A DNA stretch of 64,000 nt from Acidimicrobiales bacterium (GTDB lineage: Bacteria; Actinomycetota; Acidimicrobiia; Acidimicrobiales; Bin134): NCBI GenBank assembly GCA_965208785.1, contig OZ242356.1, forward strand, positions 2,562,929 to 2,626,928. The letters run 5' to 3'. Made by a program: the position numbers and the translations under genes. Every line of letters starts with the position of its first letter. Positions within the stretch are counted from its first letter, which is position 1. Positions 16,247 through 30,789 of this stretch are shown here, piece after piece. A model generated the notes under the pieces. It made no database searches, was not told the DNA's origin, and was given only the letters and a program-made list of their open reading frames with translations.

Positions 16247-17718
16247 CGGGACCAGGCCGGGTTGCGGTTGGCCAATTTCTGCTGGAGGCCAACACCTTTA
16301 CGCCACTGCGGTCAGAGCTTGACATCTTCGCGGCCGCCGGCCTTCTGGAGGGGCCTGGACTCGTTCGGGAAGGTTTGCCCGACGATGAGTTGGCGGCGGC
16401 TTGGGATGGTCTGGTCGCCCGCGGGTTTACGCCGGTTCCCACGGTGCGAGCATGGGCCGGGGCCGGTCCTCCCCTGACCGCCGCGGCCTTTGAGCAGATC
16501 ATGTCGGCCATCGTCGAGCCGATGGAGCCGACGCTGGCCGGCGTGCTGCTCTCTCTGCACGGCGCATCGGCAGCCGAGGGGGTGGACGATCCAGAGGGCG
16601 TGATCTTGGAGGAAGTCCGTCGTCGAATCGGAGGCGGTGTGCCGATGGCCGTGACGCTGGACTGCCACGCCGGCCTCACTGCTCGAATGCTCGAGAACGT
16701 CGACATCATCACCGGCTATCGCACCGTCCCCCATGTGGACCTGGCGCGAACCGGCGCCCAGGCAGCCCAACTGCTGTGTGATGCCATCGACGGTCTCATA
16801 CGCCCGGTGGTAAGGCATGCGGCCATTCCCATGCTTGCTCCGGCTGACCGCCAGAACAACGACCTTGAGCCCTTCCGGTCTCTCATGGGGGGTTGCACCG
16901 TCGCCGAGCAGCACCCCGGTGTGCTGGCCACTGCCTTTTTCCCCTCCCATCCTTGGCGTGACGTGCCCGAATTGGGGTGGAGCACCTGTTGCACCACCGA
17001 TGGAGACCCCGAGTTGGCCGCTGAGACGGCGTCAAGTCTGGCGGTGGCGGTCTGGGCGGCCCGAGAGGAGATGATCGGCGGCCGCCGGCCTCCATTGGAC
17101 AAGGCATTGACTGAGGCGCTGGATGGCACCGCGCCGTTTGTGGTGGCCGATGCCGGAGACAGCCCCAGCGGAGGCTCGCCGGGGGATTCCACCGAACTGC
17201 TGCGAACAGCCGACCGGATGAAGGACCGGGCCATTTGGCTTACCGTGCGGGATCCTGAGGCTGCTGAAGCAGCCGCGGCTGCCGGTGTGGGCGCGACTGT
17301 CAATGTGAGCCTGGGCCGCGGGGGAGCAGGAGAGTACAACCAGACCACCCGGCTGGAAGCCGAGGTGCTGGCCATTCCCGAAGGGAGCTTCGCCTATACC
17401 GGGTCGCTGGCCATGGGCAAGACCGGTGATCTCGGGGTTGCTGTGTTGTTGGCTGCGGGGAAGATGCGGGTGGTTGTCCACAGCCAGACAGTCATGGTGA
17501 TCGATCCCGCCCCCTATGTGGCTGCTGGATTGGACCCGGCCCAAGCGGAGGTCTTGCAAGCCAAGTCGCACGTTAGCTATCGAGAGGGCTTCGCCCCGAT
17601 CACCACCAGAAGCGTGGTTGCCAACACGGGCGGGCCCACTGCGGCCGATTTGGGGTTGCTGGAGTATCGGCGAAGGCCTGTTCCCATGTTCCCGTTCGAA
17701 TCCGACGTCCGCTTCTGA
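16243..17718 (+). CDS. M81 / MlrC-like (microcystinase C family) metallopeptidase-like protein
   Basis: 491 aa. RVAVGQFLLEANTFTP N-terminus typical of the MlrC/DUF1485 family. ATGA overlap with the ATPase gene. Confidence 0.75.
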   Translation: MTGPGRVAVGQFLLEANTFTPLRSELDIFAAAGLLEGPGLVREGLPDDELAAAWDGLVARGFTPVPTVRAWAGAGPPLTAAAFEQIMSAIVEPMEPTLAGVLLSLHGASAAEGVDDPEGVILEEVRRRIGGGVPMAVTLDCHAGLTARMLENVDIITGYRTVPHVDLARTGAQAAQLLCDAIDGLIRPVVRHAAIPMLAPADRQNNDLEPFRSLMGGCTVAEQHPGVLATAFFPSHPWRDVPELGWSTCCTTDGDPELAAETASSLAVAVWAAREEMIGGRRPPLDKALTEALDGTAPFVVADAGDSPSGGSPGDSTELLRTADRMKDRAIWLTVRDPEAAEAAAAAGVGATVNVSLGRGGAGEYNQTTRLEAEVLAIPEGSFAYTGSLAMGKTGDLGVAVLLAAGKMRVVVHSQTVMVIDPAPYVAAGLDPAQAEVLQAKSHVSYREGFAPITTRSVVANTGGPTAADLGLLEYRRRPVPMFPFESDVRF

Positions 17719-17739
17719 CCCCGCCCTAGACCGGCCAAA

Positions 17740-18450
17740 TCACCCCATAGACCAGCCGCCGCTGATATCGATTGTCGCCCCGTTGACAAAGCTGGCTTGG
17801 TCGCTGGCAAGAAAGGCCACCACGTCGCCAACATCGCGGCCCTCGCCCATCCGGCCGACCGGAATCTGGGACAGCACCCGCTCCAGGAGATCGGGATCCC
17901 GCTCGATCTGCATTTGAGCCATGGGCGTGTTGATGCCTCCGGGAAGTACCGCGTTGACCGTTATGCCTTGCGGTCCGTAGTGGCGGGCCAACGATTTGGT
18001 GAGGGCCACCAGTCCGGCCTTGGATGCGGCATAGGCCGCCGCGTGGGAGATCGCGCCAGTTCGGGCAGCCACACTGGCCACGTTGACAATCCGGCCCCAT
18101 CCTCTGCGGCCCATCGGCCCGATCAATCCCTGCGCCAACAGGAACGGGGCCCGCAGATTGACGGCGATCGTCTCGTTGAACTGCTCCAAGGTCACAGATT
18201 CGAATGGCACTTCGTGCAGGACGGCGGCGTTGTTCACCAGCACGTCCACCGGGGGAAGGTTGTCGATCAGCTCGGCGCAGGCGTTTGGATCGCCGAGATC
18301 GACCGCATGGGTCGAAAGAAACGGTCCCTCTTCGTGCTCGATGACGTCTACGCCGACGACCTGGTGGCCGAAACCGCTCAGCGCACTGGCACAGGCCAAG
18401 CCGATTCCCCGAGCTGATCCGGTGACCAGGGCGGTACGGGTTTTGCTCAT
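17740..18450 (-). CDS. short-chain dehydrogenase/reductase (SDR)
   Basis: 236 aa. ALVTGSARGIGLA Rossmann motif and YAASKAG catalytic region. Confidence 0.9.
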   Translation of the reverse strand: MSKTRTALVTGSARGIGLACASALSGFGHQVVGVDVIEHEEGPFLSTHAVDLGDPNACAELIDNLPPVDVLVNNAAVLHEVPFESVTLEQFNETIAVNLRAPFLLAQGLIGPMGRRGWGRIVNVASVAARTGAISHAAAYAASKAGLVALTKSLARHYGPQGITVNAVLPGGINTPMAQMQIERDPDLLERVLSQIPVGRMGEGRDVGDVVAFLASDQASFVNGATIDISGGWSMG

Positions 18451-18497
18451 GCTGCCTCCTGGCGATCAAGGGTGATCCCGCTCCCTGAGGGAAGGGC

Positions 18498-18511
18498 TGG
18501 AAACGTTTCGA
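18498..18511. promoter_or_regulatory. LacI-type operator candidate O3 (TGGAAACGTTTCGA)
   Basis: Lies in the divergent gap between SDR (start 18450) and amidohydrolase (start 18552). Core GAAACGTTTC is perfect. Confidence 0.65.
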
Positions 18512-18551
18512 GTAAGGTAGCGGGCCAAGCAATTTCAAGAAAGGACCGAGC

Positions 18552-19439
18552 ATGGCCGAACGGCTTGACTTCGTCGACACCCATGTCCACTTTTGGGAGC
18601 GACCGCATCCGAAGCTCCAATGGGCCTGGCTGGCCCCCGATGCTGTGCATCCGCTCTTGGGCGAGATCAAGCCGCTCAAAGAACTGACCAAGTACGTGGT
18701 CGATGATCTGCGGGCCGACACCGACGGCCTGAACGTCACCAAGATCGTTCACGTCCAAGCCGCCATTGGCTCCGCCGATCCAGTGGGCGAGACGGAGTGG
18801 TTGCAGGAGATGGCTGACGCCACCGGCTGGCCGACCGGCATCACCGGGGATGCCCGGCTTCAGCACGCCGATGTGGAGGGGGTGCTCGAACGCCACTGCG
18901 AGTTCCCCATCATGCGGGGCCTGCGCGACTTCGCCGAAGGCGACTATCTCGCAGACCCTGCCTTCCATCGGGGCTATGCCCTGTTGGAGAAGCACAACCT
19001 GGTCTACGACCTAGACGTGACCTGGGAGGACATGGGCAAGGCCGCTGATCTGGCCCGCAAGTTTCCGAACATCATCTTGATCTGCGACCACGCCGGCTTC
19101 CCCCACGAGCGCAATGACGAGTTTCTGGCCAATTGGCGGAAAGGCATCGCGGCACTGGCCGAAGCCGACAATGCAGTGGTGAAGATCTCCGGTTTGGGCA
19201 TGGGCGACCAGATGGCCGGCGGCAACTGGACCGTCGACAGTATTCGCCCCTACGTACACGGCTGCATCGAGGCATTCGGAGTGGAGCGGTCGTTTTTCGG
19301 CAGCAACTGGCCGGTAGATCGGATGTACTCCACGTACCAGGTCATGCTCGATGCCTATGTGGAGTTGGTGGCCGACTTCTCTCGAGACGAGCAGGTGGCG
19401 TTGTTCTCGGGCAACGCGGAGCGCATCTACCGGATCTAA
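18552..19439 (+). CDS. amidohydrolase-2 family metal-dependent hydrolase (sugar-lactonase-like)
   Basis: 295 aa. The FVDTHVHFW N-terminal metal motif and the DHAG / NWPVD segments match the family that includes L-fucono-1,5-lactonase. Confidence 0.8.
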   Translation: MAERLDFVDTHVHFWERPHPKLQWAWLAPDAVHPLLGEIKPLKELTKYVVDDLRADTDGLNVTKIVHVQAAIGSADPVGETEWLQEMADATGWPTGITGDARLQHADVEGVLERHCEFPIMRGLRDFAEGDYLADPAFHRGYALLEKHNLVYDLDVTWEDMGKAADLARKFPNIILICDHAGFPHERNDEFLANWRKGIAALAEADNAVVKISGLGMGDQMAGGNWTVDSIRPYVHGCIEAFGVERSFFGSNWPVDRMYSTYQVMLDAYVELVADFSRDEQVALFSGNAERIYRI

Positions 19440-19482
19440 GCGACTCTGGAGCAGGAGTCTTCGAACTCCGGCGGCCGCGCCG

Positions 19483-20601
19483 CTACTTGTCGTCGCGGTG
19501 GTGCTCGACGTAGTCCCAATCCAATTCCAACCCCCATCCCGGTCCTGACGGAACGGTGTACCTGCCGTTGGCAATTGGGGGGCGGTTGGCGATCAATTCC
19601 CAAAACAGGGGATCGCGGGTGGGGTGGAACACCTCCACATAAGTTCCGTGGGGCACCGAAGCCAGCATGTGGGCGGCGATCTGGGCTTCCTCGTGATGGC
19701 CCATCTCTACCCCGTAGACCTGGGCCATTCCCGCGATCCGGCGCCATTCAGTAGGCCCTCCCCCCCATGAGGCGTCGTAGTTGCACACGTCTATGGCCCC
19801 GGAGCTGATCAGCCCTCCAGCGCCTTGGCGGTTGAACTCGCTTTGACCGGCGGCTACCTGCACTCCGGCCATGAACCTCACGTCGCGCATCCCTCTCACG
19901 TCGTTGTACCAGCGCACCGGCTCTTCGAACCATCGGATGTGTTCGACTCCAACCAGGCGCACAAACTCCACTGCCTCAGTCACTGAATACCCCTGATTGG
20001 CGTCCACCGTGAACACGAAGTCGTCCCCGGCGGCGGCTTGGGCCACCTTGAAGCGATGAGCATCTTCGGCAGGGGAGAGGCCGCCGATCTTGAGCTTGCA
20101 ACCGCATAGATCCATATCGCGGTAGTCCTGCATCTCAGCGGCCAACTGGGCGTCGGTCTTGCCGTAGTATCCGCCGATGGCCATGATTGGCAGCTCGCGT
20201 CGATAACCGCCCCAGAGCTCGCTGACGGACAAGCCGGCTACTTTGCCGACAAGGTCCCACAAGGCGGAGTCAACTGCGGCGATGGCCATCACCACCAGCT
20301 TGCGGTTGCGGAGGATGTCGTAGGTGGGCGGCAGCATTGCCTCCCAGCACTGCTCCACCATGAGGGGATCGCGGCCCATGACGAGCGGCTGGAGCTCGTC
20401 GAGAATGATTCGGGCGATCTCGTGTTGGGTGTCGGGTTCGTCGCCGTTGTATGCCTCGCCCACCACGCCGTCATCGGTGAAGACGCGGGTGATCAGCGTG
20501 GCCCTTTCCGACATAGAGTATTTCGACCCTCGAAATGTCTCCGCCAACGGGACCACGATGGGGATGACCTCGATGTGCTTGATCTTCACGGCCTCGGCCA
20601 T
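19483..20601 (-). CDS. enolase-superfamily enzyme (acid-sugar dehydratase-like), second copy
   Basis: ORF 19483..20691 trimmed to ATG 20601 (MAEAVKIKHIEVIPIVVPL...). FTVDANQGY, WFEEP and AAGQSE segments are consistent with MR-subgroup metal ligands. Confidence 0.85.
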   Translation of the reverse strand: MAEAVKIKHIEVIPIVVPLAETFRGSKYSMSERATLITRVFTDDGVVGEAYNGDEPDTQHEIARIILDELQPLVMGRDPLMVEQCWEAMLPPTYDILRNRKLVVMAIAAVDSALWDLVGKVAGLSVSELWGGYRRELPIMAIGGYYGKTDAQLAAEMQDYRDMDLCGCKLKIGGLSPAEDAHRFKVAQAAAGDDFVFTVDANQGYSVTEAVEFVRLVGVEHIRWFEEPVRWYNDVRGMRDVRFMAGVQVAAGQSEFNRQGAGGLISSGAIDVCNYDASWGGGPTEWRRIAGMAQVYGVEMGHHEEAQIAAHMLASVPHGTYVEVFHPTRDPLFWELIANRPPIANGRYTVPSGPGWGLELDWDYVEHHRDDK

Positions 20602-20628
20602 CTCTTCGTCACTTGGTTCAAACAGTAC

Positions 20629-20642
20629 TGGTAACGTTTTCA
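20629..20642. promoter_or_regulatory. LacI-type operator candidate O4 (TGGTAACGTTTTCA)
   Basis: Divergent gap between the dehydratase-like gene (start 20601) and the LacI gene (start 20703). 10/14 palindromic. Confidence 0.55.
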
Positions 20643-20702
20643 GCAGACCAACCTGCCTATGATTTCTGGCTTGAGCGTCTGCCGCCGACAAGGAAGTGGC
20701 GC

Positions 20703-21740
20703 ATGAAACACGAGTACGTCACGATGAAGGGCGCCACCATGAAGGAGGTGGCGGCCCATGCCGGGGTGGCCTTGTCCTCAGTGTCGCGAGTGCTCAACAA
20801 CCACCCGGATGTCAGCGAGGCCATGCAGCGGCAAGTACACGATGCCATCGCCGCTGTCGGCTACGAGCCCAACCTCTTGGCCTCCAGTTTGCGGCGGGGA
20901 TCCACCGAGACAGTGGGCTTCATCGCCAGCGACATCTCCAACCCGCTCTTCGCCGAGATCGTCCTCGGGGCAGAGCGCAGACTGGACGAATCCGGGTATT
21001 CCATGGTTCTCACCAACTCTGAGGGCAATCCCGAGCGCGATGAGGCCATGATCCGCCTCTTGAGGCGCCGGCGCATCGACGGGCTCATCTTGTCGGTGGC
21101 CGACGAGGACAGGCCGGGGACGATAGCCGAATTGTCCAAGCTGGCTGAGCCGGTGGTGCTCATCGACCGCGAGGTCAGCGGCTTCCACACCGCTTCGGCG
21201 GTATTCACTGATCATTCCGGCGGTATGCGGGCAGCCAGCGAGCACCTGCTCAGCCTGGGACATCGTCGAATTGCATTGATCTCAGGAGCTCGCAGCTTGC
21301 GCCCGGTTCGTGAGCGGCTCAAGGGCTTCGAAGCGGCCTTTGCAACTCGGGGCCTTCAGGTTCCCGAAGACCTCCTTCGCTTCGGCAGCTTCTCAGCGCC
21401 GTTCGGCCAGCAGGCCACCGCCGAACTGCTGGCCCTGGATGATCCGCCCACCGCAATCATCTCTGGCGGCAATCTCTTGCTCACCGGGGTGCTGCGAGCC
21501 CTGCAAGCGGGCCAACGGTCGGTTGGCGGGGATATCTCGCTCATATCCTGCGACGACGTCCCACTGGCTGAGCTCCACACACCTCCCATTTCCGTCGTCG
21601 ACCGAGACGCGGTGCAGATGGGCGATGCCGCCGCTAGTTTGCTGCTCGATCTTCTGGCTGGCGGGGATCGTCCCCGCGTGGCCGAAGTGCCCACCCATCT
21701 GCTTCTACGGGGTTCTACGCAACCGCTGGCCGTCGATTGA
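20703..21740 (+). CDS. LacI-family transcriptional regulator
   Basis: ATG 20703 has AAGGAAG 6 nt upstream. HTH segment ATMKEVAAHAGVALSSVSRVLNN...YEPNLLASSLRRG followed by a periplasmic-binding-protein-like effector domain. Confidence 0.9.
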   Translation: MKHEYVTMKGATMKEVAAHAGVALSSVSRVLNNHPDVSEAMQRQVHDAIAAVGYEPNLLASSLRRGSTETVGFIASDISNPLFAEIVLGAERRLDESGYSMVLTNSEGNPERDEAMIRLLRRRRIDGLILSVADEDRPGTIAELSKLAEPVVLIDREVSGFHTASAVFTDHSGGMRAASEHLLSLGHRRIALISGARSLRPVRERLKGFEAAFATRGLQVPEDLLRFGSFSAPFGQQATAELLALDDPPTAIISGGNLLLTGVLRALQAGQRSVGGDISLISCDDVPLAELHTPPISVVDRDAVQMGDAAASLLLDLLAGGDRPRVAEVPTHLLLRGSTQPLAVD

Positions 21741-21754
21741 GGGACTGCTATTGC

Positions 21755-21994
21755 TCAGTCGGAGGCGATGATGGCGATAGGAGCGCCAATGCCCACCTCA
21801 TCGTCCACGGCGACAAGGTGCTCGGCGAGCGTTCCCGACACCGGCGAGGGAACGTCGGAGTCCACCTTGTCGGTCTCGACCCGCAGCAAATCGTCCCCAG
21901 CGGCCACGGTGTCTCCAACCTCAGCGAGCCACTCCAGAACCACCACTTCTTCGGTGGTGTCGCCGAGCTTGGGAAGCTTGATGGTGAAACGCAT
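21755..21994 (-). CDS. free-standing lipoyl-attachment domain protein (79 aa)
   Basis: MRFTIKLPKLGDTTEEVVVLEWL...LLRVETDKVDSDVPSPVSG contains the ETDKV lipoyl-lysine motif. No E2 catalytic domain follows. An alternative TTG start at 22009 overlaps the E1-alpha stop. Confidence 0.8.
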   Translation of the reverse strand: MRFTIKLPKLGDTTEEVVVLEWLAEVGDTVAAGDDLLRVETDKVDSDVPSPVSGTLAEHLVAVDDEVGIGAPIAIIASD

Positions 21995-22005
21995 GGTGGG
22001 CGGGG

Positions 22006-22998
22006 TCAAGGAGCGAGCACGTTGTCGAACATGGCGGCCAACGGGGGTGGCGGGCTGGACAGGACGGTCTCTACCGCGGCGGCGATGCTCTCGTCGACCA
22101 GAGTCTTCACCGCATCCAATTCGTCACCGCTCAACAGCCCCTCGTCTACCAGTCGGCGGCCGTAGTTGACGATCGGATCCTTCTCGTACCACCGCTCGAA
22201 CTCGCCTTCCGGACGATAAGGCGCGGTGTCGGCCCGGGAGTGGCCCGCATACCGGTATGTCTTCATCTCGACCAGGGTGGGGCCGCCGCCGGCTCGGGCT
22301 CGCTCAAGTGCGGCGGCGACCGCGGCGGCCGCATTGTCGGGGTCCTGCCCGTCGACGACCTCGCAGGGCAGGTCATAGGCCTGGGCTCGCACGGCGATGT
22401 CGTCCACCGGCGTGGTCAGATCGATGCGGCTGTACTCACCGTATTGGTTGTTCTCGCAGACGAAAACCACCGGCAAGTTCCATACAGAGGCCAAGTTGAG
22501 CGCCTCGTGAAAGGCGCCGATATTGGTGGCGCCGTCGCCGAACACTGCTAGTGCGGCATCGTCGGTTCCCCGCACCTGGGCGGTGAGAGCGGCCCCGGCG
22601 GCGACCGGGATCCCCGCGCCGACGATGGCGAAGGTGGGCAGCAACCCGACATCGGGTTCGCTGAGGTGCATGGAGCCGCCAATGCCACCGATCGACCCGG
22701 CTTCTCGGCCCAGTATCTCGCCCAGCAGATCGACTGGGGTCAATCCCAGGGCTAAGGCCACACCGTGGCCCCGATAGGTGCAGGTCACGGTGTCGGACAC
22801 CCGGGCGGCCGCGGCCACGCCAACGGCGACGGCCTCCTGGCCGAGGCACAGATGGGTGGTGCCGTGGACCAGTCCTTCGTCGAAGAGGTCTTGGACCTTG
22901 TTCTCCAAGGCCCTTATCTCAACCATCCGCTCGTAACGGGCGCGTCGGTCGTCTTGTAGCGCTTGGCGCCTTTCCAATCGATTGGCGGGCATGCTCAT
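22006..22998 (-). CDS. thiamine-diphosphate-dependent 2-oxoacid/acetoin dehydrogenase E1 alpha subunit
   Basis: ORF trimmed to ATG 22998 (MSMPANR...), which overlaps the E1-beta stop as ATGA. TPP motif GDGATNIGAFHEALNLASVWNLPVVFVCENN. Confidence 0.9.
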   Translation of the reverse strand: MSMPANRLERRQALQDDRRARYERMVEIRALENKVQDLFDEGLVHGTTHLCLGQEAVAVGVAAAARVSDTVTCTYRGHGVALALGLTPVDLLGEILGREAGSIGGIGGSMHLSEPDVGLLPTFAIVGAGIPVAAGAALTAQVRGTDDAALAVFGDGATNIGAFHEALNLASVWNLPVVFVCENNQYGEYSRIDLTTPVDDIAVRAQAYDLPCEVVDGQDPDNAAAAVAAALERARAGGGPTLVEMKTYRYAGHSRADTAPYRPEGEFERWYEKDPIVNYGRRLVDEGLLSGDELDAVKTLVDESIAAAVETVLSSPPPPLAAMFDNVLAP

Positions 22999-24011
22999 GG
23001 GCTTCCTTTCTCTGCCTCCCACCAGGGGGGCGGAACCCGACCGGTTTGCAACAGCCCGGCGACTTGCTCGTCGATGTAGTCCGAAGACGGCATGTACCGT
23101 TCTTCGAGTTCCTTCCCGAAGGGGACCGGCACGTCGGGTGCGGTGATCCGCAGGGGAGGCCCCTCGAGCTCGCCGAACAGGTCGGCGGCCACCGCAGCAA
23201 CGATGTCGGCCCCCCATCCCCCGAACAGCGGATTCTCCTCTACCGTCACCAATCGACCGGTGCGGGCCACTGACTCATAGACCATGTCGCGGTCCCAGGG
23301 TTGGAGGCTCTGGAGATCAATGACTTCGGCAGACCACGAGGCCGCGGCTTCAGCCTGCGCGGCGGTGCCCACGGTGGACCCCAGCGCCACAATTGTGGCG
23401 TCGTTGCCGCCGACTACCTGGCGAGCTGTTCCCAGGGGGATTACACCCTCGGGTCCGGTGGTGACGTTCTCGCGTTGGGCGTACAGCCGCCGGGGCTCGA
23501 GCACCACGGTGGGGTTGTCGTCTCGGATGGCGGCCCGCATGAGTCCGTAGGCTGTGGCTGGGCCCGAGGCCACCGCCAGCTTGAGGCCGGGCGTGCCCAT
23601 CACCCAGCCTTCCAGCGTCTGCGAATGCTGGGTGCCGAATCCCAATCCGGCGCCTACCGAGGCCCGGACGGTGAGGGGGACGGTGACCCGCCCGCCCGAC
23701 AGGTAGTGGAACTTGGCTCCTTCGGTAGACAGCTGATCCAGTGCGACGCCTAGGAACTCCACGAACATGATCTCGACCACCGGCCTCAGGCCCGTGGCGG
23801 CAGCGCCTACTGCTGCGCCCAGAAAACCCATCTCGGAGATGGGGGTGTCTCGGACCCGAAGCGGTCCGAACTCGTCCAGCAAGCCGGCTGAAGTCTTGAA
23901 CGGCCCCTCGGCCACCGCCACGTCTTCACCCAAGACGATCACATCGGGATCAGCCCGCATTTCGTCGGCGATGGCCGCCGAAATGGCCTGGTTCATTCTC
24001 ATCCGGGGCAC
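22995..24011 (-). CDS. 2-oxoacid/acetoin dehydrogenase E1 beta subunit (transketolase-like)
   Basis: 338 aa. GTG start with AAGGAGGA 5 nt upstream. VIVLGEDVA...RVRDTPISEMGFLGAAVGAA...VVEIMFVEF. Confidence 0.9.
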   Translation of the reverse strand: MPRMRMNQAISAAIADEMRADPDVIVLGEDVAVAEGPFKTSAGLLDEFGPLRVRDTPISEMGFLGAAVGAAATGLRPVVEIMFVEFLGVALDQLSTEGAKFHYLSGGRVTVPLTVRASVGAGLGFGTQHSQTLEGWVMGTPGLKLAVASGPATAYGLMRAAIRDDNPTVVLEPRRLYAQRENVTTGPEGVIPLGTARQVVGGNDATIVALGSTVGTAAQAEAAASWSAEVIDLQSLQPWDRDMVYESVARTGRLVTVEENPLFGGWGADIVAAVAADLFGELEGPPLRITAPDVPVPFGKELEERYMPSSDYIDEQVAGLLQTGRVPPPWWEAEKGSP

Positions 24012-24087
24012 GGAATCCTCCTTGTTTCACAGTTCGCCGAAGAACCGGTGGCACGAGTAGCTGTCTACGCCGATTCGCACGCCGGCC

Positions 24088-25185
24088 TCAGCCGCCGATT
24101 CGAATCACAGCACCCGTCTGGGCGCTGCGAACCGCGGCGTCCACCACCTCCACAGTGCGGGCACCGAGATCGGCAGTTGAGCGGTTGGGGGCGCCTCGGC
24201 CCAGGGTGAGGTCGATCAGTGTGTCTGGCGGTCCCACACACTGGTAGAGGCCGGCATGGCGAGGCAGGTCGACTTTGAGGTCGAGCCCGTCTTCTCGGTA
24301 GAGCCACAGGAAGTCTCGCTCCAAATCGGCAATCAGCTGCCCTTCCGATCCGAAGATTCGGACTTGGAGCTGATGTCGGGACCACGGCTCGTCGGGGTCG
24401 TCGATGGCGTTGGCCGTTGCCGGACAGCTTGCTCCGCTTATCGAACCGGTTGCGCCCGACTGATAGCGCATCGAGATGGCGTCATGCATGTCGACTCGGG
24501 CGCTCAGGTTGTTCATAAATGCGAACACCTCTTGGGCCCGGTCGCCGGTCAGCCACATGGCCAGCCCCATGGCGTGCGAGATCTGAGCGGGGGCATATCC
24601 GCCTCCCGACACTCCCGGATCGGTCCAAGTCTCGGCTTCGGGAGCGAAGCCCTCGGCCGACCCCTCGTAGCCGCCACCGCCGGTCGAGGTGAGCAGCTCT
24701 CTGGTCCCCGATGCCATCGCCACCAAAACGTGCTCGACTTGGCCCACGCCGCCCTCGGACTCCATCAAGCGCTTGGCCTCGATCCCAAGCGGTCCATAGT
24801 TCCAGCCAAAAGACAACAGCAGGTGGCGGCCCAAACGCTCGGCGGTGTGGTGCAGATCCCAGGCATCGTCGGGGTCGACGGTGAAGGGCTTCTCGCACAG
24901 CACGTTGGCGCCCGACTCCATGGCCGCCTTGGCGTGCTCATGGTGCAGACCTGATGGGCTGGCCACGATCACGGCGTCGAGCCCTTGGTCCAAGGCGTCT
25001 CGGTAGTCCTCGCTTACATGGGCGAAGCCGAACCGGTCGCCAATGGCCTCCAGCGCCTCACGTCCCTTGCGCACGGCAGAGACCAGTTCGACATCGTCTC
25101 TCTCTGCCAAGACAGGAATGTGGTTGCTGACGGCCCACGACCCTGCACCAATGACCCCCACACGGACCTTTCTGCTGGTCGCCAC
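24088..25185 (-). CDS. Gfo/Idh/MocA-family NAD(P)-dependent oxidoreductase
   Basis: ORF 24088..26133 trimmed to GTG 25185 (GGGAGGA 7 nt upstream). KVRVGVIGAGSWAVSNHIP Rossmann motif and CEKPF segment. Confidence 0.85.
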   Translation of the reverse strand: MATSRKVRVGVIGAGSWAVSNHIPVLAERDDVELVSAVRKGREALEAIGDRFGFAHVSEDYRDALDQGLDAVIVASPSGLHHEHAKAAMESGANVLCEKPFTVDPDDAWDLHHTAERLGRHLLLSFGWNYGPLGIEAKRLMESEGGVGQVEHVLVAMASGTRELLTSTGGGGYEGSAEGFAPEAETWTDPGVSGGGYAPAQISHAMGLAMWLTGDRAQEVFAFMNNLSARVDMHDAISMRYQSGATGSISGASCPATANAIDDPDEPWSRHQLQVRIFGSEGQLIADLERDFLWLYREDGLDLKVDLPRHAGLYQCVGPPDTLIDLTLGRGAPNRSTADLGARTVEVVDAAVRSAQTGAVIRIGG

Positions 25186-25204
25186 GGTCGTCCTCCCTCT
25201 GCGC

Positions 25205-25218
25205 CGGTAACGTTTCCA
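25205..25218. promoter_or_regulatory. LacI-type operator candidate O5 (CGGTAACGTTTCCA)
   Basis: Divergent 63-bp gap between the Gfo/Idh/MocA gene and the SDR gene. Confidence 0.6.
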
Positions 25219-25248
25219 AGCGTAGAAGGCGAGCAAGGAGCGGGCAAA

Positions 25249-25995
25249 GTGGTCTCCAATGGGATGGCACAGGGGAAAGGGGTGGCCGGGAGGACGGCCG
25301 CGGTCACCGGCGCAGCCCGGGGCATTGGCCGGGCGGTGGCCGAATGCCTGGTGGACGGCGGTGCTCGAGTGGCCCTGCTCGACATCCAGGCGCCGACCGA
25401 CGAAGCGGCCCTGAATCAGTCTGACGACACGATGTTCGTGTTGTGCGACGTGACCGATGAGCAGTCTGTCGGCCACGCGGTCCGGCAAATCGAAGCGGTG
25501 TGGGACGGGGTGGACATCCTGGTCAACAATGCGGGGATCTTCGCCATTGAACCGCTGGAGCAGACCACGCTGGAGGGCTGGAACCGCATGCTCGCGGTCA
25601 ACCTCACGGGGAGCTTCCTGTGCAGTCGACGAGTCTTGCCCGGGATGCGCGACCAGGGGTGGGGCCGGATCATCTCCATGGGGTCGAGCGCGGGCAAGAC
25701 AGGCGGGTCGAAGAACACCGCGGCTTACGGCGCGGCCAAGGCGGGTGTCATGGCACTGGCAAAAGCCATCGCCACCGAATATGCCCCGTGGGGGATCACG
25801 TCGAACGCGATGGCGCCGGCGCTCATAGAAACCGACATGGTGGCAGGAATAGCCGACCTGGCTGATGGCATTCCAGTGGGGCGCCTCGGCCAACCGGCCG
25901 ATGTCGCCCATGCCGTGCGGTTCCTGGCCAGTGAAGAGGCGGGCTACATCACCGGCGAGGTGATGGATGTCAACGGGGGGTTCCTGATCGACTGA
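25249..25995 (+). CDS. short-chain dehydrogenase/reductase (SDR)
   Basis: GTG 25249 with AAGGAG 8 nt upstream; the in-frame ATG 25264 is an alternative start. AAVTGAARGIGRA Rossmann motif and YGAAKAG catalytic region. Confidence 0.85.
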   Translation: MVSNGMAQGKGVAGRTAAVTGAARGIGRAVAECLVDGGARVALLDIQAPTDEAALNQSDDTMFVLCDVTDEQSVGHAVRQIEAVWDGVDILVNNAGIFAIEPLEQTTLEGWNRMLAVNLTGSFLCSRRVLPGMRDQGWGRIISMGSSAGKTGGSKNTAAYGAAKAGVMALAKAIATEYAPWGITSNAMAPALIETDMVAGIADLADGIPVGRLGQPADVAHAVRFLASEEAGYITGEVMDVNGGFLID

Positions 25996-26067
25996 CGCGC
26001 ATGACGCGGGGCGGGTTGGGCCAGACCTGCTGGCAACGCTTCCCGGTGGGCGATAGCTTGCCTGGCC

Positions 26068-26382
26068 ATGGAACGCGCCTGCTTCACCTTCGAGATCTAC
26101 CCCGACGCCGCCGACGAGTACAAGAAGCGCCACGACGAGATCTGGCCTGAGCTCGTTGAGGCCATTCAGGCGGCCGGGCTCAAGAACTACTCCCTATTCC
26201 GCCGGGGGACTCAGGTCATCGCCTATGTGGAATGCCACCCTGACGTGGAGACGGCGTTCGGCAAGATCGGTGAAACCGAGGTCAATGGACGCTGGGCGAC
26301 GTGGTTCGAGGATGTGATCGTCTCCCTGGCCGACGACGACGGCAACCTGTACTGGGCCGACGAGGTGTGGCACTTGGATTGA
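26068..26382 (+). CDS. rhaM: L-rhamnose mutarotase family protein
   Basis: 104 aa. YKKRHDEIWPEL...AGLKNYSLF...WHLD pattern typical of the RhaM/YiiL family. Confidence 0.75.
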   Translation: MERACFTFEIYPDAADEYKKRHDEIWPELVEAIQAAGLKNYSLFRRGTQVIAYVECHPDVETAFGKIGETEVNGRWATWFEDVIVSLADDDGNLYWADEVWHLD

Positions 26383-26409
26383 GGAGATGGCACGGCCTGC
26401 CTTGGCCGC

Positions 26410-27828
26410 TCAGTGCGTGACGGCGATCAGCTCCACGCAGGTGTCCACCAGGATCTGCTCGCTCTCAGGGGCGATCTGCTCGACGAGGCCATACGAGTGG
26501 TGGGCGTAGTCGCATTCGTAGCCCCCGTCGGGATATTCCACGGCAGTGGGCAAATAGGTGAGCACGCCGTTCGTGTAGCCCGCGAACAGCGTGGTGGCCG
26601 CAACAGAGCGCCGCTTGACCTCGATGGCCAATTCTGAGAATGCCTCGCCGGGCATGGTGGCAATGACCGTGTCTCCAATCCGCATGGCTTGCAGGAACGC
26701 CGGAACTTGTGACGCAGTGTCGCCGCGGCGTGTCTGCTCGATGGCGTCTTCAGCCCAGTTGAGGTGGTACTCGACGGGGTTGAGTGCCACCTGATCAGCG
26801 CCGGACGACCGAATCCGATCTACTTCTTTCTGGTAGCCGTCCCGTTCGGCCTCAAGTTGGGCCAGAGTGGGGAGAGGTTTGAGGGGAAGCTGCACGGTGC
26901 GACCGCAGGCGGCCAGCGTTTGCACCGGTTGGGGATCGGCGGCCACCTGACGGTGCAGCACGATAGGGGTGACCGAGCCGTAGTCGATGCGCTCGATGCG
27001 GAGCTCAGTGGGAGTGAGCTGCTCGAGGACATGCAGCACTTCCACCCCTAGCTTGCGGCCGAATGCCACTTCGGGACCGGTGTGGTCGAAGAATCCTTCG
27101 AGCGGGAGCACGTTTCCGCAGGCCCCTTGCAAGAACAGGCACGTCGCGCCGGTCACTTGTTCGACCAGGTCGCGCATTGGGCCGGGATAATCGGGGTTCA
27201 CCCCGGCATCCTCCGGGCCGACCACCACCGGGTGGCAGGCGTAGCTGACCAGCACGGCGAGCGTCGAGCCGTCCAAACGGTCGATGCGCAGCACTCCCAC
27301 GTCACGGTCCACTGCCTTGTCGGGGTTCCAACCCAAGATCACCCGCCCCTCGGCGTTCTTCTCCCGCCGGTTCACTGCCAGATCCAAGGTTCCGACCCCA
27401 CCGGCGACTCGGACCGGTTCAAGCTGGGCCGCGGCTTGGGTGGCGACTTCTTTGATCTGCCGAGGAAAGGAGTCTATGAAGGCCAGCTCATTGGCGGATC
27501 GCGCTCGCTGCTGCCCGCCGATTTTCACACCCTGGGAATCGGTCATCGGGCCGGCATGGGTGTGGCTCACCCCGATCATGACGTGATCGGGAGAAGTGTC
27601 AATAGCGGCACCGATCTCCGCCCGCAAGCGGTCGGCATGATGGGGGGTCAGGAAGGGCACATCGGCGGCCAATATGGCCACCCGGGTGGGGCCCAACTCC
27701 ACAACCAACGCGGTGGCCGTGAGCCGGCCTCGAATTTCCGAGGCCGGCTCGACTCGTCGGGAATAACCCACCACATCAATTGGAACCGATGGGGTGATGT
27801 CGACACGGGAGACCCCGGCACTAAGCAT
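26410..27828 (-). CDS. neutral/alkaline ceramidase-like amidohydrolase
   Basis: 472 aa. RVDITPSVPIDVVGYSRR N-terminus and GVSHTHAGP zinc-site-like motif resemble the neutral ceramidase N-terminal domain. Confidence 0.65.
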   Translation of the reverse strand: MLSAGVSRVDITPSVPIDVVGYSRRVEPASEIRGRLTATALVVELGPTRVAILAADVPFLTPHHADRLRAEIGAAIDTSPDHVMIGVSHTHAGPMTDSQGVKIGGQQRARSANELAFIDSFPRQIKEVATQAAAQLEPVRVAGGVGTLDLAVNRREKNAEGRVILGWNPDKAVDRDVGVLRIDRLDGSTLAVLVSYACHPVVVGPEDAGVNPDYPGPMRDLVEQVTGATCLFLQGACGNVLPLEGFFDHTGPEVAFGRKLGVEVLHVLEQLTPTELRIERIDYGSVTPIVLHRQVAADPQPVQTLAACGRTVQLPLKPLPTLAQLEAERDGYQKEVDRIRSSGADQVALNPVEYHLNWAEDAIEQTRRGDTASQVPAFLQAMRIGDTVIATMPGEAFSELAIEVKRRSVAATTLFAGYTNGVLTYLPTAVEYPDGGYECDYAHHSYGLVEQIAPESEQILVDTCVELIAVTH

Positions 27829-27841
27829 GGGGGCATTGTGC

Positions 27842-27855
27842 CAGAATCGTTTCCA
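27842..27855. promoter_or_regulatory. LacI-type operator candidate O6 (CAGAATCGTTTCCA)
   Basis: Divergent 56-bp gap between the ceramidase-like and isomerase-like genes. An extra TGGAAA half-site lies at 27862..27867. Confidence 0.5.
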
Positions 27856-27884
27856 GAGTGTTGGAAAGAGAGAGGCGGAAAGGG

Positions 27885-29285
27885 ATGACTCCCCTAAAGA
27901 TCGGCCAATTGTCTGCGTATTTCGGACTGTTCGATGAAGCTATGCCGGCCGGGTTCCGCCAAACGCGCCGAGACTATGCCGCCGCGGTTGGCGACATGCT
28001 GGCGGCGTACGGTGAAGTCGTTGCGCCCGGTCTGGTGGACAACCTGGACAGCGCCGCTGAAGCGAACGAAGCGTTCGTCAAAGAAGGGGTGGACGTTGTG
28101 GTCTTCGCTCCCACCATGGCGGCGCCCCCCGGATGGGCGGCGCGGGCATTGGATGGCTTGGATGTGCCGGTTGTCGTGCTAGGGGCCCAGGAGAGCGGGA
28201 CTGTGCCCGACGACTACGACACCGAGACGGCCACCGCTCGCAGTCTGCCGGTGGGGCTGGTCATGTTCACCAATGTGCTTGTCCGGCGACGGCGGTCGTT
28301 CACCGCTGTGGTAGGCGAGTTGGGGTCGCCGACGCTGACAGTCTCGCTGGGCCGGGCCATGAGGGCAGCAGCGGCCGTAGCCACCATTCGCGGCCGGCCC
28401 ATTGCCCAAGTTGGCGAGGCCATCGGGGGCTACGACGATGTCATGGCCTCTGAGCAGGAGCTGGCCTTGCTGGGAGTGCGAACGGTGTCGATCACGGCCG
28501 AGAAGCTGACTGAGGCGTTCCAGTCGGTCTCGCCAACCCGGGTGAAGGCGGTTGCCGACGAGGTCCGGGCGACCGCAGACGCCGACGCGGTTCCCCCCGA
28601 GGTCTTGGACAGGTCGTGCCAGCTGAGCGCGGCGCTGGAAGACCTGTGTGATGCCTATCGGGTTTGCGGTGGGACGGTGAACTGCCACGGGCCGGTGATG
28701 CGCTGGAACCCGGGAGTGGGAATCACCGCGTGTTTGGGCGTCACCCGGCTCAGCGAGCGGGGCATCCCGTTCTCCTGCACCGGCGATGTCCCCACGGCCA
28801 TTGCGCTCTCGCTATGCAAGTCGGTGGCCGGGGCCGCGTTGTACTGCGAGCTGTATCAGATGGACTTCGCCGGAGACTGGATCCTGGTGGCCAACGGCGG
28901 GGAGGGAGATCCAACCGGCCGCGCCCCGGGGTCGGCGATACGCTTGCTGCCCGAGGACCACTATTCGGGAGAGCATGGCCCCGGTACCGCCTCGGCTTTC
29001 GAGCTGGCTGAAGGCCCGTCCACCTTGGTGAGCCTGACTCCGGCCGCAGCCGCTGTGGGCGGCTGGCTCTTGGTCGTGGCCGAGGGCGAGATCATCGGCG
29101 CACGCCATCGCCGAATGGAGGGGCCAAACGGCATGTTCCGGTTTTCTGCCGCGCCAGTGGCTGAGGCTTATCAGGCCTGGTGCCAGGCAGGCGCTACCCA
29201 CCATGCGGTGCTGGTGCCCGGGGCTCGTCAAGATGATCTGGCGTGCGTTGCCGATCTGTTGGGAATTGAGCTGGCCGCGGTCTAG
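27885..29285 (+). CDS. L-arabinose/L-fucose isomerase-family protein (putative sugar isomerase), paralog 1
   Basis: ATG 27885 with GGAAAGGG upstream. 466 aa. Overall pattern (N-terminal Rossmann-like VVVFAPTMA..., central CHGP, GDVPTA, C-terminal HHAVLVPG) resembles the AraA/FucI superfamily. The assignment is tentative. Confidence 0.55.
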   Translation: MTPLKIGQLSAYFGLFDEAMPAGFRQTRRDYAAAVGDMLAAYGEVVAPGLVDNLDSAAEANEAFVKEGVDVVVFAPTMAAPPGWAARALDGLDVPVVVLGAQESGTVPDDYDTETATARSLPVGLVMFTNVLVRRRRSFTAVVGELGSPTLTVSLGRAMRAAAAVATIRGRPIAQVGEAIGGYDDVMASEQELALLGVRTVSITAEKLTEAFQSVSPTRVKAVADEVRATADADAVPPEVLDRSCQLSAALEDLCDAYRVCGGTVNCHGPVMRWNPGVGITACLGVTRLSERGIPFSCTGDVPTAIALSLCKSVAGAALYCELYQMDFAGDWILVANGGEGDPTGRAPGSAIRLLPEDHYSGEHGPGTASAFELAEGPSTLVSLTPAAAAVGGWLLVVAEGEIIGARHRRMEGPNGMFRFSAAPVAEAYQAWCQAGATHHAVLVPGARQDDLACVADLLGIELAAV

Positions 29286-29308
29286 AAAGTGAAGGCGGAC
29301 TGGCCGGA

Positions 29309-30754
29309 TTACACCACGGTGCAGTCAACGTTTGCGAAATTGGCTACTGCGGCCACTGCTGATGCCAAGTGCCCAGGGGAGATGGCACTGTGGTGGTTGA
29401 CCCCGGAAGCCGTCCACCGGGCCCATGCTTCGGCCACTGACCCGTTGGAGAAGCGGAACACGCCTCCGACGGTGGGGTTGGCGGGCAGTTCTCGGCCGGT
29501 GATCTCCCCTTCGGCCACGACGAAGCCGAACCCTGACGGATGTTCCGGTTGGGGGGCGAACCCGACCAGCGATGCCGGCCCAGTCGGCAATTCGAAATGG
29601 GCCCGATACCCGGTGCGCTGATCGGCGTCATACCAGGGGTTGGGTCCCAGCTTCGGCACTCGGCCATCCGAGCACCAGTCCAGGTCATGCTCCCCTGAGT
29701 TGGCCACCGCCACCTCACCGGTCTTGAAGTCGATGGCCTCGATTTCGTGGTAGAGGGCCGCACCGGAAAGCTGCTTGGCCACCAGCATGGCCACTGCGGT
29801 GAGCACATCCCCGGTACACGTCCAAGGCACTCCCCGAGTGGTTTCGCAGCCCAGCCCGAAACAAGGTGTCAGTCCGGGGTCGGGTCCGAAGCGGATCTCC
29901 GGAACATGGCAGTTCATTGCTCCGGCGGCGAAATCGCCCTCTCGGTCCAGGGCCTCGAGTGCGGCCGCCAGACGAAGGGACCTGTCGAGGTCGTCCTCCG
30001 GTCCCGGTTCTATCTCAAATGAGCCGACCACCCGTTGGCGCCAAGAGGCGGCCTGGGCGTCGTCGACCGCGGCGTAGTGCCGCAGCACATCGTGTGGGGT
30101 CAGGGCTACGACTTCTATCCCCAGAGACCGCCCCAGTTCTTCGTCGTCGGCGTCGACGCATCCGTAGCCATCCAGGGGGCGGCCGACCCGAGCCAATCGA
30201 GCTCGGCGCAAGCGAGTCGCCACGGCTGCGGCTCGAAGCCGGTCGGCCACCTCGGCTGCGCCCCGCTCGCTCCCTTCGGGGGAGACCACCAGCTCGAAAG
30301 CTCGCCGGGTCCGGTGGAGCATGTTGGTGATCATCGGAGTGCCCACGGTCGCCCCCAGAGACGTGACATGACCAGCATTGAAGTCAGCAGGGATGACCGC
30401 CGACCTCTGCACCGCCCAGATGACGACCGGCCGAGGGAGATGATCGAGGAGGCCTAATGCATGAGAGGGAGGCACTGCCATCGACTGAACTACCAATACA
30501 GCTTCGGGGCCGCGGGCCGCGGCCTCTTCAGCGCCGCGGACGCCCTGTTCGGGACCGTCGACCAGTCCCTGCCAAACGACATCGATGTTCCGTTCTCCAA
30601 GGAGGTCACCCACAGACCGCAGCAGATTCTCGCGGTCACTTCGAAAATCTGGCCCGACGCTCGATTCCCAAAAATCCCAATAGGGAACGACGACTGCGGC
30701 TCTCGGCGCGGCCTTCTGGTGGTAGCCAGGCTCGCCATCGATCGGTATAGTCAT
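29309..30754 (-). CDS. L-arabinose/L-fucose isomerase-family protein, paralog 2
   Basis: ATG 30754 (MTIPIDG...). 481 aa. Colinear with 27885..29285 (MNCHVPE.., CTGDVLTAVAML, NHHSAISPGH). Confidence 0.55.
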   Translation of the reverse strand: MTIPIDGEPGYHQKAAPRAAVVVPYWDFWESSVGPDFRSDRENLLRSVGDLLGERNIDVVWQGLVDGPEQGVRGAEEAAARGPEAVLVVQSMAVPPSHALGLLDHLPRPVVIWAVQRSAVIPADFNAGHVTSLGATVGTPMITNMLHRTRRAFELVVSPEGSERGAAEVADRLRAAAVATRLRRARLARVGRPLDGYGCVDADDEELGRSLGIEVVALTPHDVLRHYAAVDDAQAASWRQRVVGSFEIEPGPEDDLDRSLRLAAALEALDREGDFAAGAMNCHVPEIRFGPDPGLTPCFGLGCETTRGVPWTCTGDVLTAVAMLVAKQLSGAALYHEIEAIDFKTGEVAVANSGEHDLDWCSDGRVPKLGPNPWYDADQRTGYRAHFELPTGPASLVGFAPQPEHPSGFGFVVAEGEITGRELPANPTVGGVFRFSNGSVAEAWARWTASGVNHHSAISPGHLASAVAAVANFANVDCTVV

Positions 30755-30757
30755 TGC

Positions 30758-30771: not shown

Positions 30772-30789
30772 AGGAGAAGGAAACGGCAG

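Follow-up and report, generated by a model that had tools for sequence, protein, structure and literature searches.

Lipoate-dependent oxidative decarboxylation is taught as the task of large complexes assembled on an E2 (acyltransferase) core. In Actinobacteria, the OdhA protein is devoid of a lipoyl domain, and it has been proposed to rely on the lipoyl domains of E2p (PMC8740704). Free-standing lipoylated carriers outside the 2-oxoacid dehydrogenase complexes are described for LbpA of the sHdr sulfur-oxidation system (PMC6067878). Analysis of a 64,000-nucleotide (nt) stretch of the genome of a sponge-associated member of the Acidimicrobiales (here called the window; genome positions 2562929-2626928, within a single 3.54-Mb contig) revealed genes for the two subunits of a thiamine diphosphate (ThDP)-dependent E1 dehydrogenase, followed by a gene for a 79-amino-acid (aa) free-standing lipoyl protein. 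Judged from gene content and operator sites, this trio is a module in a LacI-controlled catabolic regulon for a sugar acid. Its parts come from known families (alpha/beta ThDP E1 and E2-type lipoyl domain); their combination is undescribed. The module falls outside the pyruvate dehydrogenase (PDH) equivalogs, the acetoin (Aco) system, the classical operon, and GcvH. Literature searches on lipoyl proteins together with fuconate or rhamnonate, on the Protein Data Bank (PDB) codes related to a dehydratase encoded nearby, and on free-standing lipoyl proteins returned no description of such a module.

Organization of the E1-lipoyl operon

Four co-directional genes on the minus strand form the operon, in the order Gfo/Idh/MocA oxidoreductase, E1-beta, E1-alpha, and lipoyl carrier. 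Coordinates are positions in the window unless marked as genome positions, and labels such as L023 denote the relative loci that were compared.

25205..25218, read on the minus strand as TGGAAACGTTACCG: LacI-type operator, between the divergent Gfo-E1-Lip operon and the short-chain dehydrogenase/reductase (SDR) and rhaM genes
24088..25185, minus strand: Gfo/Idh/MocA NAD(P) oxidoreductase, 365 aa, GTG start, first gene of the operon (PF01408, 71.6 bits; PF22725, 40.5 bits)
22995..24011, minus strand: E1-beta, 338 aa (PF02779, 129.5 bits; PF02780, 109.7 bits)
22006..22998, minus strand: E1-alpha, 330 aa (PF00676, 241 bits)
21755..21994, minus strand: free-standing lipoyl carrier, 79 aa, with the motif VETDKV (PF00364 only, 67.1 bits)

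The TGA of E1-beta and the ATG of E1-alpha overlap as ATGA, and 11 nt separate the E1-alpha stop codon from the start of the lipoyl gene. The initial annotation had described this beta-then-alpha coupling and the 79-aa lipoyl-only ETDKV protein behind it, and the coordinates and Pfam matches agree with that description. The placement of the module directly behind a Gfo/Idh/MocA gene under an operator likewise holds, the operator-like palindrome being located 19 nt 5' of the GTG start of this gene, with a GGAGG ribosome-binding site between the two. A pattern search found 10 LacI-type palindromes in the window, compared with 1.3 expected by chance; the operator sites and the neighboring genes confirm the sugar-catabolic setting that had been proposed. 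Contigs from four public sequencing runs span positions 17000-31503 with zero differences, and these runs may be the genome's own source sample. No RNA runs were found for the locus; the runs that hold it show flat coverage, as genomic DNA does.

The 79-aa protein as a putative lipoylated carrier

The best NCBIfam matches of the 79-aa protein were E2 lipoyl domains, at 66 to 71 bits; biotin carriers scored 24 bits or less. The lysine motif is of the lipoyl type (VETDKV), without the biotin-type MKM. The protein has no linker, peripheral subunit-binding domain (PSBD), or acyltransferase domain and shares 47% identity with the corresponding domain of the E2 encoded in the same genome, namely, its lipoyl domain. 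Comparison with GcvH revealed a PF01597 match of only 26.9 bits over residues 18-68, and the gcvH models gave 26 bits against cut-offs of 116 to 117. On the AcoC model NF011457, the carrier spans profile positions 5-79 of 372 and reaches 66 bits against a cut-off of 307. These features characterize the protein as a putative lipoylated carrier.

The carriers of relatives are 43 to 91% identical to that of the window. All of them stop right after the fold, and the motif (V/I)E(T/S)DK(V/A) is kept in every orthologue.

It had been considered that the lipoyl gene could be a truncated E2 pseudogene. This was ruled out. The stop codon of the gene lies 14 bp from that of the convergent LacI gene, which leaves no space for E2 remnants downstream, and a stand-alone gene of 72 to 83 aa is conserved in 22 loci.

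A fused arrangement was seen in one protein, P0006 (406 aa, on a 1992-bp ENA metagenome contig), in which E1-alpha continues in frame into a lipoyl domain (...AMFAMRSNSVRYTIKLPKLGD...). This single cluster member may be a natural fusion or an assembly or indel artefact.

E1 subunits

In two-subunit E1 enzymes, a glutamate of the beta subunit serves in cofactor activation, a histidine of the beta subunit serves in acid/base chemistry, and a histidine of the alpha subunit serves in acyl transfer to lipoate. Both subunits encoded in the window belong to the alpha/beta ThDP-dependent E1 family, with PF00676, PF02779, and PF02780 matches far above the Pfam gathering scores. Scores fell short of the two PDH equivalog cut-offs (TIGR03182, matched by E1-alpha, 307.3 against 393.85 bits; TIGR03181, 245.4 against 411.35 bits), and E1-beta remained below the cut-off of subfamily NF006667 (286.2 against 321 bits). 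The closest solved structure is human PDHA1 (1NI4) for E1-alpha, at 191 bits; E1-beta matches 1UM9 from Thermus thermophilus at 249 bits. E1-alpha retains the ThDP motif GDGATNIG...CENN and the YRYAGHS histidine, both of which align with human PDHA1. In E1-beta, the ThDP-activating Glu55 (ISE) and the catalytic His124 (QHSQ) were invariant across 66 sequences. Sequence comparison thus characterizes the catalytic residues of this predicted E1 as intact. The histidine of the YRYAGHS class has been implicated in acyl transfer to lipoate (PMC2663715).

Two features set the E1 proteins with this gene order apart from their relatives. First, E1-beta ends in a clade-specific C-terminal tail, ...GRVPPPWWEAEKGSP. 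This extension of about 14 residues, G..P..WW...., is present in all E1-beta proteins of the beta-alpha loci, with both tryptophans invariant (17 of 17 plus 5 of 5 loci), and in 0 of 49 alpha-beta relatives. An AlphaFold2 model of the E1-beta monomer had a mean pLDDT (predicted local distance difference test) of 91, with a mean of 88 for residues 321-330; the tail is predicted to be ordered, with a short helix at residues 325-329. The C terminus of E1-beta is the reported binding site for the PSBD of E2 (PMC11754459). Since the tail is placed where the PSBD is reported to dock, altered docking can be considered, and an ordered, conserved WW tail as modeled would fit an E1 that does not dock on an E2 core or docks on it differently. 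Second, E1-alpha carries the clade-specific residues L84, P121, T122, G129, and G187, which adjoin conserved active-site stretches. L84 replaces an arginine of the other relatives and of human PDHA1, G129 replaces histidine or glutamine, and G187 replaces methionine. These substitutions hint at a different substrate.

Conservation and phylogeny of the module

A search of 5.8 billion proteins with E1-alpha gave 8,000 scored candidates, of which 7,810 passed an E value of 0.001. Among the matches listed, at least 120 are 64% or more identical to E1-alpha; the few named sources among the matches listed are Acidimicrobiia or plain "bacterium". A scan of species-representative genomes yielded 80 loci, 16 of them with E1-beta followed by E1-alpha. 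In 15 of these 16, an open reading frame (ORF) for a lipoyl-only protein of 77 to 83 aa comes next; the remaining locus, L025, shows none on its 5-kb contig. The same trio is present in L010 and L012, contigs taken by identity, and in five loci gathered separately (L093-L097), where the carrier has 72 to 80 aa. In total, E1-beta, E1-alpha, and then a lipoyl gene for 72 to 83 aa were found in 22 loci, a number that is a lower bound.

In the E1-alpha tree, the 17 sampled beta-alpha sequences form one clade (SH-aLRT branch support, 99), and the tree requires a single change of gene order. Clade members with a named source all belong to Actinomycetota, namely, Acidimicrobiia, Nanopelagicaceae-like Actinomycetes, and Solirubrobacterales. 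The tight clustering with ordinary enzymes that the initial annotation had envisaged as a counterargument was therefore not seen; the E1 has its own clade. The remaining loci have the alpha-then-beta order, mostly with an E2 gene for 340 to 460 aa adjoining, and the examples tested encode classical E2 proteins. Taken together, the recurrence of the trio and the tree characterize the module as real and conserved at the level of sequence.

An Aco-type identity of the nearest alpha-beta relatives was also considered. It was rejected: the 354-aa E2 of L030 is classical and is not AcoC.

Among 401 evenly sampled Actinomycetota genomes, the module was found in the window genome and one other member (G235). 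With one further member among 401 genomes, its prevalence in reference genomes is low. A near-identical locus is present in several sponge metagenomes. Given the abundant relatives of the E1 and the sponge metagenomes, the pathway may matter for carbon turnover by uncultured Acidimicrobiia.

Two loci deviate in layout. L093:9231-12573 (G235:C4) contains E1-beta, an E1-alpha-like gene, an 80-aa lipoyl gene, and a second E1-alpha, so that two alpha paralogues flank one carrier; the stretch corresponding to TYRGHG reads FPHRVH in the first alpha and CTHRTH in the second. In L097:7263-11092, genes for PIN-domain proteins flank the E1 pair on both sides, one of them being inserted, together with a 55-aa ORF, between E1-alpha and the 72-aa lipoyl gene. 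This locus abuts Wadjet-like DUF2397/DUF2398/DUF3323-JetD genes.

E2, E3, and lipoate genes elsewhere in the genome

Across the 3.54-Mb genome, PF00198, the E2 catalytic domain, is matched only twice, at genome positions 2138269 and 1550080, about 450 kb and 1 Mb from the window, and none within the 64-kb window. The locus therefore lacks a classical 2-oxoacid dehydrogenase operon, in which an E2 with PSBD and PF00198 is encoded with the E1, and the early remark that the window holds no E2 catalytic domain proved right. The first copy belongs to a 435-aa E2 that combines a lipoyl domain, a PSBD, and a catalytic domain. Its gene is part of a typical actinobacterial cluster (AceE, 898 aa; Lpd, 465 aa; E2; LipB; LipA) some 450 kb away from the window. 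The second is part of a 1236-aa reading frame of the OdhA/KGD type. The claim that the dehydrogenase has no E2 core or E3 is thus valid for the locus and the window and not for the cell, which has an E2, an OdhA-type domain, and an Lpd encoded elsewhere; the genome search that had been recommended for a separate E2 core and lpdA recovered a single E2 and Lpd in one cluster. In all 12 of the other module-carrying genomes tested, a housekeeping E2 is accompanied by an OdhA-type E2 domain, and 6 of these 12, like the window genome, have just those two. No Lpd-like gene was found in any of the module loci compared.

By tblastn, the only lipoyl domains elsewhere in the genome are those of the E2 itself. 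A PF00364 match at genome position 367021 was examined as a second stand-alone lipoyl protein and rejected, being a biotin carboxyl carrier that adjoins biotin carboxylase. The only E3-like flavoprotein of the window was assigned as follows.

37035-38393: mycothione reductase (equivalog NF005884, 629 bits; cut-off, 501)

It passes the curated cut-off, as had been suspected from its sequence, and was rejected as a dedicated E3.

These data bear on the view that the proteins are an ordinary PDH or branched-chain E1 working on the canonical E2, the lipoyl gene being a dispensable leftover and the sugar setting coincidental. This view is in line with the lack of a second alpha/beta-type E1 in the window genome (tblastn), with the best NCBIfam models, which are PDH E1 subunits, and with the presence of a canonical E2 and Lpd. 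However, the scores remain under both PDH equivalog cut-offs, and AceE already adjoins the E2 of the genome. The lipoyl gene is retained in all 22 loci at 43 to 91% identity with its motif kept, the E1 forms a separate clade with its own active-site substitutions and tail, a LacI operator precedes the operon, and synteny with the dehydratase extends across classes and phyla. This explanation is considered very unlikely.

Neighboring genes and the predicted pathway

The genes around the operon encode the following proteins.

20703..21740, plus strand: LacI-family repressor, convergent with the E1 operon (PF00356, PF13377, PF00532)
19483..20601, minus strand: acid-sugar dehydratase of the enolase superfamily, mandelate racemase/muconate-lactonizing enzyme (MR/MLE) type (PF13378, PF02746)
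18552..19439, plus strand: Amidohydrolase_2 lactonase-like protein (PF04909, 113 bits)
17740..18450, minus strand: SDR oxidoreductase 1 (PF13561, PF00106)
25231..25995, plus strand: SDR oxidoreductase 2, divergent from the Gfo operon (PF13561, 200.9 bits)
26068..26382, plus strand: L-rhamnose-mutarotase-family protein, 104 aa (PF05336, 77.5 bits)
6526-7644: CaiB-type (family-III) coenzyme A (CoA)-transferase

Eighteen neighborhoods were compared after gene calling and clustering. The steadiest partner of the E1 was one orthologous MR/MLE group, 49 to 87% identical to the product of 19483-20601. Its gene directly follows the lipoyl gene in L012, L018, and L024, precedes E1-beta in L021, and also adjoins the alpha-beta E1 of the basal lineages L034, L067, and L089. 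SDRs were present in every neighborhood; Amidohydro_2, Gfo, AP_endonuc_2, rhamnose-mutarotase-family, ceramidase-like, and unclassified cysteine-rich proteins recurred. Gfo orthologues (52 to 85% identity) adjoin the E1 in L010-L017, with further Gfo/Idh/MocA proteins called by Pfam in L095 and L096. The LacI repressor is kept beside the module in L010-L016 and L020 (54 to 84% identity) and called by Pfam in L094, and SDR 2 occupies the same position in L010-L016 (67 to 78% identity). A rhaM-family gene lies beside the module in L010-L017 and L089 (39 to 91% identity) and is called by Pfam in L095 and L096.

The dehydratase matches the PDB entries 3MSY, 3NO1, and 4H83 at 461 bits, structures that were deposited without a named function, and its best NCBIfam model gives 148 bits against a cut-off of 500. 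For the Amidohydrolase_2 protein, the L-fucono-1,5-lactonase model NF052480 reaches 107 bits against a cut-off of 400, and the sole solved relative is 4DLF. All NCBIfam matches of the Gfo enzyme are far under the cut-offs, and its best solved structure scores 55 bits. The nearest structures of SDR 1 are FabG and acetoacetyl-CoA reductases, a generic result. Overall, the solved structures related to the dehydratase, lactonase, Gfo enzyme, and both SDRs are unnamed or generically FabG-like, and none of them names a sugar. Because the pathway enzymes are all under the NCBIfam equivalog cut-offs, the sugar cannot be named; the function of the 3MSY/3NO1/4H83 orthologous group would name the pathway.

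Known nonphosphorylative rhamnose and fucose routes run through a sugar dehydrogenase, a lactonase, and an enolase-superfamily dehydratase and end either with an aldolase (HpcH family) or with a 4-dehydrogenase and a hydrolase of the FAH family. The window contains no match to PF01557 (FAH) or PF03328 (HpcH), and both families occur elsewhere in the genome. The E1-lipoyl module may fill the terminal step in sugar-acid clusters that are without the usual aldolase or hydrolase.

The setting varies among the loci. L094 contains a class-III aminotransferase, an alpha/beta-hydrolase, an Amidohydro_1 protein, peptide-type importers, and a CoA-transferase (CoA_transf_3), and L093 contains an aldehyde dehydrogenase-like gene and SDRs. 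A dehydratase of the MR/MLE superfamily and an aminotransferase can both yield 2-oxo acids.

A different use of the E1 would be acetoin-type, nondecarboxylative cleavage, in which the Gfo enzyme, with or without AP_endonuc_2, converts a 6-deoxy sugar or sugar acid to a methyl alpha-hydroxyketone or diketone that the E1 splits into an acetyl-lipoyl carrier and an aldehyde, in the manner of acetoin dehydrogenase acting on acetoin. Gfo, with or without AP_endonuc_2, shares one operon with the trio in the window, L012, L014, L095, and L096, and the presence of a rhamnose-mutarotase-family gene is suggestive of a methyl-terminated 6-deoxy sugar. The analogy with IolG, IolE, and the ThDP enzyme IolD of inositol catabolism points in the same direction, and one source names relatives "acetoin:DCPIP oxidoreductase". 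However, this name is an automatic annotation. Gfo occurs in just 5 of 11 distinct beta-alpha neighborhoods and AP_endonuc_2 in 6 of 11, the dehydratase being steadier; AP_endonuc_2 is absent from the window, and L093 and L094 have genes for neither protein. The locus has no AcoC- or AcoL-type gene, and no AcoC-like alpha/beta-hydrolase acyltransferase was found among the window proteins scanned with Pfam. Cleavage of this type is chemically attractive for a 6-deoxy sugar, but co-occurrence lends it less support than it lends the link to the dehydratase, and acetoin-type cleavage is regarded as unlikely. The initial annotation had proposed a keto-sugar or diketo-acid as the substrate of the E1. 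Because 2-keto-3-deoxy acids are the product class of the dehydratase, ordinary 2-oxo-acid chemistry is the simpler reading.

The same neighbors speak against a biosynthetic role, in which an E2-less E1 would act as a carboligase and attach a two-carbon branch to a sugar, as do the stand-alone E1 pairs of deoxysugar antibiotic pathways. The surrounding genes are catabolic (importers, mutarotase-family, lactonase-like, dehydratase, and LacI), with no nucleotide-sugar or glycosyltransferase genes, and a dedicated lipoyl carrier implies oxidative transfer and not carboligation. A carboligase is thus highly improbable.

Several further genes were observed near the module. Positions 7940-9055 and 30790-31908 encode paralogous proteins of about 371 aa without a Pfam match, relatives of which (34 to 41% identical) lie near the module in L011, L012, L014-L016, L021, and L067. 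A convergent pair of genes for proteins of about 470 aa (27885-29285 and 29309-30754) is conserved beside the module in the closest relatives; one product has a weak Arabinose_Iso_C match and the other none. An M81/MlrC-type metallopeptidase homologue (16243-17718) and a ceramidase-like protein (26410-27828) are encoded inside the sugar regulon, and freshwater relatives add creatininase-family and phosphotriesterase-family genes as well as peptide-type importers. Given these metallopeptidase, ceramidase-like, and creatininase-type genes, an amide or lactam bond may be present in the nutrient. Directly beside the E1 or lipoyl genes, a muconolactone-isomerase-like protein (about 100 aa; TIGR03221, 69 bits, under the cut-off) recurs at L019:11277-11606 and L023:11696-12022, by similarity in L025, L036, and L089, and as the same ORF cluster in L067; it was not seen in the portion of the window that was examined.

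Proposed reaction and discharge of the carrier

In the favored mechanism, which is given about an even chance of being correct, E1 oxidatively decarboxylates a 2-oxo acid of the pathway onto a diffusible lipoyl carrier, which is then discharged by an E2 domain in trans and reoxidized by Lpd. E1-beta and E1-alpha would form a presumed alpha2beta2 ThDP enzyme. Its probable substrate is a 2-oxo acid made in the pathway, most likely the 2-keto-3-deoxy acid released by the dehydratase or a derivative thereof oxidized by an SDR or the Gfo enzyme. The acyl group would be moved reductively from E1 to the lipoyl-lysine of the 79-aa protein, which would serve as a diffusible carrier and not as an arm of an E2 core. 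An E2 catalytic domain, supplied either by the housekeeping E2 or, as an E2-like domain, by the OdhA-type protein, would hand the acyl group to CoA in trans, and the housekeeping Lpd would reoxidize the dihydrolipoyl carrier, giving NADH.

Evidence for an E2 catalytic domain came from L023, a locus of a Solirubrobacterales metagenome-assembled genome (E1-alpha, 64% identical) that lies inside the beta-alpha clade. Its gene order is E1-beta, E1-alpha, SDR, muconolactone-isomerase-like protein, 79-aa lipoyl protein, 430-aa CaiB-type CoA-transferase, and 262-aa E2 catalytic domain, the last three being located at L023:12023-14284. The 262-aa protein has the motif DHRVLYG and is without a lipoyl domain or PSBD. 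By domain composition, L023 encodes a naturally split E2. In the basal alpha-beta sugar lineage, L067 encodes a complete E2 of 400 aa. The split E2 of L023, the presence of E2 domains in every genome tested, and the proposed actinobacterial precedent of action in trans favor an E2 catalytic domain in trans.

The carrier could also be discharged without any E2. A hydroxyacyl thioester would then leave by intramolecular lactonization or through a hydrolase of the cluster (Amidohydro_2 or ceramidase-like), followed by reoxidation by Lpd, a course that we consider rather unlikely. CoA esters, if required, would be made subsequently by a CaiB-type CoA-transferase, and the arrangement as a whole would be akin to the glycine cleavage system. 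Several points favor this course. Twenty of the 22 beta-alpha-lipoyl loci have no gene for an E2 catalytic domain within 10 kb; CaiB-type transferases and hydrolases resembling lactonases or amidases are repeatedly encoded next to the module; and the tail of E1-beta is at the reported docking position of the PSBD. An acyl group derived from a 2-keto-3-deoxy acid would, on chemical grounds, bear a gamma-hydroxyl able to attack the thioester. On the other hand, L023 has a dedicated E2 catalytic domain and L067 a full E2 beside the E1, every genome tested has E2 domains, a thioesterase is not consistently present, and the lactonization is a purely chemical proposal. With E2 domains in 12 of 12 genomes and an E2 next to the E1 in L023 and L067, an E2-free reaction is possible but not indicated. 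In its strictest form, which we likewise hold to be rather improbable, the WW tail replaces PSBD docking, the acyl-dihydrolipoyl protein lactonizes by itself or feeds the CaiB-type CoA-transferase directly, and E2 is never used. If direct use by CaiB were true, lipoyl-protein thioesters would be pathway intermediates comparable to acyl-acyl carrier proteins (acyl-ACPs).

In line with CoA chemistry, CaiB-type CoA-transferases are encoded near the module in L018, L021, L023, and L024, with a CoA_transf_3 protein in L094 and one transferase in the window. Several observations weigh against the favored mechanism of decarboxylation onto a diffusible carrier with discharge by an E2 domain in trans. 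Most loci are without an E2 catalytic gene nearby. Should the tail of E1-beta prevent the PSBD from docking, the housekeeping E2 could be reached by free diffusion only. The CoA-transferase that recurs is equally consistent with an acid being set free and then activated to its CoA ester, and more than 20 CoA-transferase paralogues in the genome weaken the CaiB argument for the window. Moreover, the pathway enzymes are far below the curated NCBIfam cut-offs, and the module is found without sugar-acid genes in L093, L094, and L097.

Comparison with known systems

In source records, the proteins of the module appear as "pyruvate dehydrogenase E1", "E1 component", "biotin/lipoyl-containing protein", "E2 component", or "hypothetical protein", names that could mislead metabolic reconstruction. 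The heterotetrameric E1 enzymes of PDH and branched-chain 2-oxoacid dehydrogenase (1NI4, 1UM9, and 1W85 from Geobacillus stearothermophilus) share with the module the two-subunit architecture, the ThDP motif, the His/Glu/His residues, and a lipoyl-lysine acceptor. The module differs from them in its beta-alpha order, its free 79-aa acceptor, the extra P..WW tail, the setting in a sugar-acid regulon, and scores below the cut-offs. The acetoin system AcoA/AcoB/AcoC/AcoL resembles the module as an alpha/beta ThDP E1 in peripheral catabolism; the module is without AcoL and without AcoC, in which a lipoyl domain is joined to an acyltransferase part, its gene order is reversed, and its E1 forms a separate clade.

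The nonphosphorylative L-rhamnose and L-fucose pathways share with the regulon a mutarotase-family protein, SDRs, a cog3618-type lactonase-like protein, and an MR/MLE dehydratase. In the window, neither an equivalog-level lactonase or dehydratase nor an HpcH or FAH enzyme is encoded, and the E1-lipoyl module stands in place of the HpcH aldolase or FAH hydrolase.

In the glycine cleavage system (P, H, T, and L proteins), a decarboxylase loads a small diffusing lipoyl protein that is reoxidized by Lpd, without an E2 core. The module, in contrast, has a ThDP E1 instead of the pyridoxal phosphate-dependent P protein, its carrier matches PF00364 at 67 bits compared with 27 bits for PF01597, and no analogue of the T protein was identified. 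The resemblance is architectural only, a free carrier being combined with the chemistry of 2-oxoacid dehydrogenases. LbpA is GcvH-like and acts in sulfur chemistry with Hdr-like proteins, whereas the carrier of the module would serve a ThDP E1.

The actinobacterial PDH and 2-oxoglutarate dehydrogenase, with a trimeric E2p and an OdhA/KGD protein devoid of a lipoyl domain, also distribute lipoyl and acyltransferase functions over separate proteins, which presumably act in trans (PMC8740704). The module would be the mirror image of OdhA: OdhA combines E1 and E2 catalytic domains and borrows a lipoyl domain, and the E1 of the module would borrow a catalytic domain. A conserved lineage that pairs an E1 with a free lipoyl protein, with no core, would extend the actinobacterial trend of dismantled complexes.

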